35,443 nt of DNA, from NCBI GenBank assembly GCA_031408275.1, contig JANNWA010000347.1:1-35443 (forward strand). The letters run 5' to 3'. This document shows, piece by piece, positions 34,030-35,136 of the stretch. Position numbers and translations under genes: made by a program. The stretch's first letter is position 1; every line of letters begins with the position of its first letter. This DNA comes from Pseudomonadota bacterium (GTDB lineage Bacteria; Pseudomonadota; Gammaproteobacteria; Burkholderiales; SG8-39). The notes beneath the pieces are model-generated. The model worked only from the letters and a program-made list of their open reading frames with translations. It had not been told where the DNA came from and made no database searches.

Positions 34030-35136
34030 TCAGCCCGCGCCGCGGTTGAGTTTTTCCAGCCCGAGTTCCTCACGCAGGCCTGCGGTCGCCTGCTCCTTGA
34101 AATCCTCCAGCGGGATGCCGCTGCCGTCCGCAAGCTTTACCACTGCATTGAACGAGGCGACGATCGCCGCCGCATCGACCATCGCCGCGGCGCCCATCGC
34201 CGCGTGGACCGCCTCGCGCGCGCTCTCTCGACGCTTGGCGTCCCCGCGAAGCATCGCCTCGCCGAACTCCACCAGGATCGACCCATGCGGTACGCCGACC
34301 CCGCTGCCGTCGCCTTCCAGCGCGGCGCCCAAGGCGACCTCCTCGCCTGCATGTTGGCCGCTCGCACGGAGCAGCGCCGTATGGCTGACCGTTCAGTAAT
34401 AGCACCCGTTCAGCGCCGATACCCGTCCCGCAAGGAGTTCGATCTGCACGTGCGAAAGGGCGCGATACTCCTGCGCGAAATCGCGGATCTCGTGGTCCTT
34501 GAGGTAGAGCTCCACGTCGAGGTCGAAGAAATTCAGCACCTCCTGGGGCACCAGGCTCAGCGCACGGTGGATGTTCTTCGCACCATGGATCCGGTACGGG
34601 TCCGGGTCTCCGGGGGCGAGATCCTCCGGCGCAACGGTACTGACCCAGGCCAGGTCGCGCCTGGCGCCGGCCGGGCGATGGCGGCTCGGCGCCCCCGGCC
34701 GGGCTGCCGGGAGCGGGCGCTGGGGCAGCCCGAGCGAGAGGTCGAAAGAGTCAAGCGCCGTGATGAGCGCGACGACGCCGACAGCCTCGACGTACTGTTC
34801 CTCGGTGACGCCGGATTCGAACATCGAATACAGCCACTTCTTTGTCAGGCGGCCGGCGTCGGTGGCGATGCGGTGCACGATCTCCACGATCGAGAGGGGC
34901 AAGTGTCCGGGGCCGTCATGGCTGCCCTCCGCGGTGTACGGCGAGAGCGCCTCCTTGCGGCGCCTGCACAGGCCGCAGGCGTGCGCCCTGCGTACCTCGG
35001 CGGCAATCGCCAGCCGTTCCGCTCCGGTCCACCAGGTCCCGGCCGAGGCGAGGCGCTCCCAGGCGAGGCTGCATTGGCGCGCGAGCCCATCGCGGATAGC
35101 GAGTGCGGCAGGGTCAAAGGCGGATGCTTGCGCCAT
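34030..35136 (-). CDS. AhpD/CMD-like alkylhydroperoxidase-related selenoprotein (368 aa; in-frame TGA at 34393-34395, codon 248)
   Basis: ORFs 34393-35136 and 34030-34332 are in the same frame with no other stop between them; junction reads [27 protein letters not shown], the AhpD E..C-x2-C-x3-H motif with TGA at the second Cys. Confidence 0.85.
34356..34377 (-). promoter_or_regulatory. Candidate bacterial SECIS hairpin
   Basis: mRNA 3' of UGA: stem GCUGCUC/GAGCGGC (7 pairs, one G-U), loop CGUGC with GU, loop begins after 24 nt. Confidence 0.55.

Follow-up and report, generated by a model that had tools for sequence, protein, structure and literature searches.

Two called open reading frames of a Burkholderiales genome very probably form one gene for an NF041238 selenoprotein with a predicted tandem of AhpD-like domains

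AhpD reduces AhpC by means of a C-x-x-C-x-x-x-H motif, in which the second Cys serves as nucleophile. The protein of Mycobacterium tuberculosis (PDB 1gu9/1knc; TIGR00777) shows this pattern at the start of a helix in an all-helical AhpD fold. Selenoproteins built on the same fold are also known. Those of the TIGR01926/COG2128 type ('AhpD-like 1' of the marine surveys; PMC1088965, PMC2398784) have CxxU in an AhpD/CMD fold and are single-domain proteins of about 180-200 residues, and further AhpD-like CxxU families were described in the 2008 ocean survey (PMC2398784). Closest to the protein considered here is 'hypothetical protein 1', a selenoprotein family first reported from four sequences that share a conserved CXXU, without functional evidence (Zhang, Fomenko and Gladyshev 2005, PMC1088965). 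A 2026 review (PMC13188914) equates this CxxU selenoprotein of the 2005 Sargasso Sea study with NCBIfam NF041238 (AhpD_rel_CFYUT, 'alkylhydroperoxidase-related (seleno)protein', an equivalog model); this review was the only paper retrieved when the full-text literature was searched for NF041238 by name.

The locus studied here is part of a 35,443 nt window (the whole stretch of DNA that was analysed; G+C 65.5%), which is contig JANNWA010000347.1 of assembly GCA_031408275.1 from a Pseudomonadota bacterium (Burkholderiales; SG8-39). A 247-aa ORF on the minus strand (34393..35136) ends in a TGA placed directly after the residues N-G-C-Y-Y. Past this TGA, the same frame is open for another 120 codons, through a 100-aa downstream ORF, down to 34033, so that the read-through product has 368 residues, including Cys245, Sec248 and His252 in the motif C245-Y-Y-U248-T-V-S-H252. 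A previous sequence-only reading had claimed that the first ORF stops within its active-site motif NGCYY, that the frame is continuous into the second ORF to give 368 aa, and that a His follows the TGA at +4; the ORFs and their translation bear this out on the minus strand, the distance from Sec248 to His252 being as claimed. The features of the locus are collected in Table 1.

Table 1. Position and basis of the features assigned to the selenoprotein locus (window coordinates; residue numbers refer to the read-through product).
Feature	Position	Strand	Basis
Complete selenoprotein CDS, 368 residues, Sec at 248	34033..35136	-	Translation; NF041238 match; alignment with 18 relatives on both sides of the TGA
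Putative Sec codon UGA, residue 248	34393..34395	-	TGA in 20/20 related loci; Cys in 26/28 long homologues
Candidate SECIS-type hairpin, 7-bp stem, 5-nt loop C-G-U-G-C (loop 34364-34368), stem 17 nt after the UGA	34357..34375	-	Minimum-free-energy fold and comparison of loci
Terminal stop TGA of the gene itself	34030-34032	-	Translation
RBS-like GGGAGA, 6 nt 5' of the ATG (ATG at 35134-35136)	35143..35148	-	Read from the sequence
Predicted N-terminal helical domain, residues 1-145, second divergent AhpD/CMD-like fold	34702..35136	-	Separate model; structure search
Invariant C54-x-x-C57 of the N-terminal domain	34966..34977	-	C54 and C57 in 19/19; present in most long homologues
C-terminal AhpD/CMD-fold domain, about residues 161-355, with the CxxU...H centre	34072..34656	-	Pfam CMD; PDB profile; structure alignment

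We consider it very probable that the two called ORFs are a single gene, encoding a 368-residue NF041238 selenoprotein in which UGA is read as Sec by means of a hairpin and SelB. The read-through protein scores 451.2 bits against NF041238 (cut-off 175), its residues 14-364 matching profile positions 1-356 of 357 in one stretch, and the C-[F/Y]-Y-U/C-T motif suggested by the name of the model is present as C-Y-Y-U-T at residues 245-249. The only Pfam domain found is CMD (PF02627; 27.9 bits, cut-off 23), located around the motif. The core-domain model TIGR00778 is just over its cut-off (31.7 against 27.8 bits), while TIGR01926 (37 bits, cut-off 81.8) and TIGR00777 (20 bits, cut-off 191.95) are both far below theirs. 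The suspicion voiced in the sequence-only reading that the family might already be catalogued was thus well founded: it is NF041238, which the 2026 review traces to the 2005 paper. The protein is very probably a genuine selenoprotein, and its family has been catalogued since 2005; because this family has been in the literature since then and is present among the NCBI annotation models, the finding as such is an ordinary one.

With NF041238 and 'hypothetical protein 1', the window protein shares the CxxU motif, the position of Sec, and a stem-loop downstream whose loop contains a G. It shows C-Y-Y-U-T instead of the commoner C-F-Y-U-T of NF041238, and otherwise nothing sets it apart from the family. 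It shares CxxU in an AhpD/CMD fold with the TIGR01926-type selenoproteins, but it differs from these single-domain proteins in its extra 145-residue N-terminal domain, which has a CxxC of its own. With AhpD of M. tuberculosis it shares the motif at a helix start and the all-helical fold, the mycobacterial protein having Cys where the window protein has Sec.

The conservation of the UGA codon was evaluated by a six-frame search of 61 genomes (the source genome and 60 relatives; E <= 1e-20), which gave 32 match rows in 15 genomes. An in-frame TGA is present in each of the 27 rows that reach across residue 248. The five rows lacking a stop are confined to residues 3-240, 9-226, 4-110, 252-365 and 6-130, and in the one row with two TGAs, the second is the terminal stop. 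At the level of individual loci, the homologous codon was TGA in all 20 loci read there, namely 11/11 orthologs, 8/8 fetched paralogs and the genome's own second copy. The ortholog loci have the motif C-Y-Y-U-T-V-S-H and are 64-81% identical to the window protein; the paralog loci have C-A-Y-U-T-T-A-H or C-L-Y-U-T-T-A-H, at 41-47% identity. When the protein was aligned with 18 relatives, the similarity held on both sides of the TGA, and C54, C57, C245, Y247, U248, T249 and H252 were among the positions invariant in all 19 sequences. Judged from these alignments, the conservation of TGA across 20/20 loci with flanking similarity is far beyond chance.

Further evidence was provided by the 150 best representatives of 50%-identity clusters. 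At least 300 residues are present in 31 of them, and 28 of these long homologues cover the Sec site. The residue opposite U248 is Cys in 26 and Gly in two; as to the other three long representatives, two end at the Sec position and one matches the N-terminal part alone. As far as can be read from the aligned sequences, this is a classical Sec/Cys pairing. The homology search with the read-through protein, proposed beforehand as a check, had been expected to find the TGA either conserved or opposite Cys, with similarity on both sides, and this is what was observed (20/20 loci and 26/28 homologues, respectively). A TAA or TAG codon or a frame change at the junction, named in advance as grounds for abandoning the idea, occurred in none of the 20 loci read.

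The genomes of the genus typically contain two diverged copies of the NF041238 family. In the source genome, the second copy (about 42% identity, motif C-A-Y-U-T-T-A-H) has its own TGA and a matching hairpin, and is split across two contig ends (G000:C1:24311-25147, L044, and G000:C57:4810-5184, L045), a split that reflects the assembly and not the biology. In five relatives (G002:C97, G008:C1, G013:C57, G014:C288 and G017:C3), selB and the paralog share a contig and are about 4-9 kb apart; the distance is about 385 kb in G015, and in others the two lie on different contigs. A loose linkage between the paralog and the Sec-machinery locus is possible.

When the 71 nt surrounding the UGA are folded, the candidate SECIS-type hairpin appears in the minimum-free-energy structure. 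It should be noted that this segment folds no better than shuffled sequence (z -0.11); since the folding energy does not support the hairpin, comparative evidence was relied upon instead. The stem core and the four loop bases C-G-U-G are invariant in 19 loci. Standard pairs fill 97.7% of the 133 cells compared in these loci, as against 23-48% if the pairing partners are slid by 1-3 columns. Compensatory changes are seen at two of the seven stem pairs (G-C/C-G in 11/6 sequences and C-G/A-U in 12/6), and a third pair alternates between U-G and U-A; because the 19 sequences represent two lineages, the ortholog and paralog groups, these changes correspond to few independent covariation events. The 11 orthologs also point to constraint on the RNA. 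Synonymous variation, counted over codon columns with an invariant, degenerate amino acid, affects 0/6 codons at 254-259, compared with 89.5% of 153 codon columns gene-wide, and when the entire gene is scanned in 13-codon windows, variation is lowest in those beginning at codons 247-254. The small apical loop containing a G agrees with the bacterial SECIS criterion as it is worded in PMC1088965. In the proposed decoding, the hairpin would recruit SelB with Sec-tRNA(Sec) to the UGA, which would then not be read as a stop, and selenocysteine would be inserted at residue 248; all other UGA codons, including the stop of the gene itself, would terminate translation, having no such hairpin.

The Sec machinery was searched for in the source assembly (664 contigs, estimated 99.8% complete). 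A selB gene (268.7 bits, cut-off 242.25) was found at the very start of contig C36, with the first ~75 model positions missing, and a tRNA-Sec gene (73.3 bits, anticodon tca) lies ~1 kb downstream of it on the same contig. The selD gene (250.5 bits) is cut by the start of its contig (G000:C294). No selA was found in the 664 contigs with TIGR00474, PF03841 or the SelA protein of a congener. In all three congeners tested, a selA over the cut-off lies directly upstream of the region aligning with the source SelB; as C36 begins inside selB, the likeliest place for selA is an assembly gap, and on the ground of this synteny it is probably located in the gap directly upstream of selB. The sequence-only reading, which implied selABCD elsewhere in the genome, therefore holds for selB, selC (tRNA-Sec) and selD, and selA is the part that was not found. 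With selB and selD at contig starts and selA absent, the Sec-machinery loci seem to coincide with assembly breaks. The genus as a whole keeps the Sec machinery, selB being over the cut-off in 17 of its 18 genomes. One genome of 99% completeness and ~290 contigs (G009) contains a TGA-carrying paralog, yet gave no selB match at E <= 1e-50, which could be due to an assembly gap or to a stranded selenoprotein gene.

These data bear on the alternative that the UGA is decoded, but not as Sec: it could be read as Cys or Trp by near-cognate read-through or by a suppressor tRNA, or UGA could be reassigned throughout the genome. Such decoding would be compatible with the presence of Cys at this position in the Cys-type homologues and with the failure to find in the assembly selA, which is needed to make Sec-tRNA. 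However, lpdA (1135..2904) and rpiA (2871..3566), both identified by NCBIfam, end in TGA, in keeping with the earlier claim that TGA is an ordinary stop elsewhere in the window, and the selenoprotein gene itself ends in the same codon; therefore, UGA is not reassigned. Moreover, tRNA-Sec with anticodon tca is found beside selB, selD is present, the UGA is followed by a SelB-type hairpin whose loop bases are conserved, and selA is directly upstream of selB in the three congeners. Decoding as a residue other than Sec thus appears very unlikely, and the specialised tRNA for Cys that the sequence-only reading had offered as an alternative is without support. In contrast, the insertion of selenocysteine at the TGA is supported by the conservation of this codon, by the Sec/Cys pairing, by the hairpin, and by selB, selD and tRNA-Sec.

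Even harder to sustain is the idea of a nonsense mutation, in which a Cys codon TGC or TGT has become TGA, translation yields the 247-residue fragment alone, and the frame beyond it is open by chance or because the decay is recent. Standard gene calling does yield a 247-aa ORF, and one ortholog, that of G008, has indeed decayed through an internal deletion. Against this idea, the same codon is TGA in 20/20 loci down to 41% protein identity, the 120 downstream residues are conserved with invariant positions, and the RNA hairpin is under constraint. In addition, 103 of the 150 best cluster representatives end exactly in C-x-x (80 in CFY, five in CYY, plus others), which indicates that gene callers cut these genes at the same codon. 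We consider a pseudogene at this locus highly improbable. Finally, we give hardly any credence to two separate functional genes, the 100-aa protein being translated independently from the TTG at 34332: both ORFs do appear in the mechanical ORF list, but they share a frame and adjoin without interruption, their junction falls inside the AhpD helix and the CxxU-x3-H motif, NF041238 spans both parts as one stretch, and the Cys-type homologues are single proteins of 324-429 aa.

The reading as one selenoprotein gene has a consequence for annotation, in that standard gene calling splits this gene and the error is widespread, the correct product being the 368-residue selenoprotein. The best 120 of 935 hits in a collection of 5.8 billion proteins are 242-264 aa long, mostly 247, with ~67% query coverage. 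Most catalogued members of the family are stored as fragments of ~247 residues, some of them labelled 'hypothetical protein' or 'alkylhydroperoxidase family enzyme'.

The decayed ortholog of G008 (L032, contig G008:C175, locus positions ~2200-2390) is a deletion remnant in which ~80 codons are missing after residue ~236. The CxxU motif and the hairpin are lost and the C-terminal end is in another frame; the same genome retains the TGA-containing paralog.

An AlphaFold2 model obtained from the 19-sequence alignment (mean pLDDT 83.6, pTM 0.88) is all-helical, with CxxU at the start of helix 246-263. In the PDB, a profile search by sequence retrieved only AhpD-type entries, and only through residues 184-338, with 6k40 at 4.2e-10; the nearest solved structures (6k40, 2prr, 3c1l and 2oyo) belong to the TIGR01926-type peroxidase-related group. 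When the whole model was compared with the PDB by Foldseek, there was no match at E <= 0.001, the best being 6k40_A at 3.6e-2. In VIA alignment, residues 161-355 of the model were superimposed on 6k40_A (AhpD of D. radiodurans) with Z 12.6 and rmsd 3.0 over 175 aligned residues. The best match of the whole model was Sestrin2 (5dj4_A), with Z 16.3 and rmsd 3.4 over 233 aligned residues for residues 10-341.

The N-terminal 145 residues, modelled alone (pLDDT 90.5), gave AhpD/CMD proteins as the top seven of 48,161 chains, with Z values of only 8.8-5.6, which are middling for helical proteins. Neither the PDB profile search nor half-versus-half hhalign detected a sequence-level match of this domain to AhpD/CMD; the hhalign comparison of the N- and C-terminal halves was not significant (probability 1.4%, E 0.036), and it placed C54-x-x-C57 over C245-x-x-U248. 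On the evidence of the models, the protein is likely to be a tandem of two AhpD-like domains. Sestrin2 (PDB 5dj4, 5t0n, 5cuf), like the predicted window protein, is one chain composed of two AhpD-like halves. However, the two proteins are 11% identical with no sequence-level relation, and Sestrin2 is a eukaryotic leucine sensor without Sec; their likeness may reflect an independent fusion of AhpD folds. As judged from titles and the opening lines of abstracts, no description of a tandem architecture for NF041238 was found in the literature on sestrin, AhpD and selenocysteine and on NF041238. The predicted Sestrin-like AhpD tandem with its second conserved CxxC would be a small addition to a known family, and a modest lead for its characterization.

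As to the catalytic function, the C-terminal AhpD-like domain would hold in C245-x-x-U248-x-x-x-H252 the redox motif of AhpD, with Sec replacing the second Cys, and by analogy we infer a selenol/thiol oxidoreductase. Because the second Cys is the nucleophile in AhpD, Sec248 is taken as the attacking residue. Its target would be an oxidized substrate, either a hydroperoxide or an oxidized cysteine on a partner protein. Cys245 would be the resolving residue, converting the adduct into a selenenylsulfide, His252 would assist in the cycle, and regeneration would be accomplished by an external reductant, or possibly by the N-terminal C54-x-x-C57. A more speculative extension, which we put forward tentatively and consider rather less than an even chance, is that the family represents a bacterial Sestrin-like fusion of two AhpD domains with two redox centres, C54-x-x-C57 acting as a relay that re-reduces the C245-x-x-U248 selenenylsulfide, so that the enzyme is either self-contained or coupled to a specific reductant. 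If true, this relay would provide a testable mechanism for a selenoprotein that has been 'hypothetical' for 20 years.

The gene neighbourhood was examined for indications of the substrate. The neighbours of the selenoprotein gene in the window are a divergent gene for an SDR-type oxidoreductase (35211 onward) and a convergent gene for a BPSS1780-like membrane protein. The latter is adjacent only in the two closest of the loci of the 18 relatives, and the SDR gene in 0/18. The longest open frame on each side was scanned in five ortholog loci (10 frames), selected from a set of 14 loci; these flanks contain unrelated families (DUF1501, 2-hydroxyacid dehydrogenase, AtuA, periplasmic binding protein, DAO) or nothing. 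No conserved neighbour gene pointing to a substrate was found in the loci of the 18 relatives and the flanks of the five ortholog loci, nor was ahpC seen in the flanks examined, in the window or in the relatives' loci. The gene seems to stand alone.

Some observations concern other genes of the window. At 589 aa, the lpdA product is a long form, and its first ~120 residues match the lipoyl-domain region of an E2 model; a different ORF, 21392-22819, was considered as lpdA and ruled out, having no NCBIfam match at 1e-20. The mechanical start of the rpiA ORF (2871) overlaps the end of lpdA (2904), and because the RpiA profile match starts at residue 11, the true start of rpiA may be further downstream. 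ORF 32053-33180 (375 aa) matches only the C-terminal half of the model for the bifunctional 23S rRNA methyltransferase RlmK/RlmL (profile positions 395-699 of 704; 366.9 bits, below the cut-off of 466), and looks like a stand-alone RlmK-like methyltransferase.
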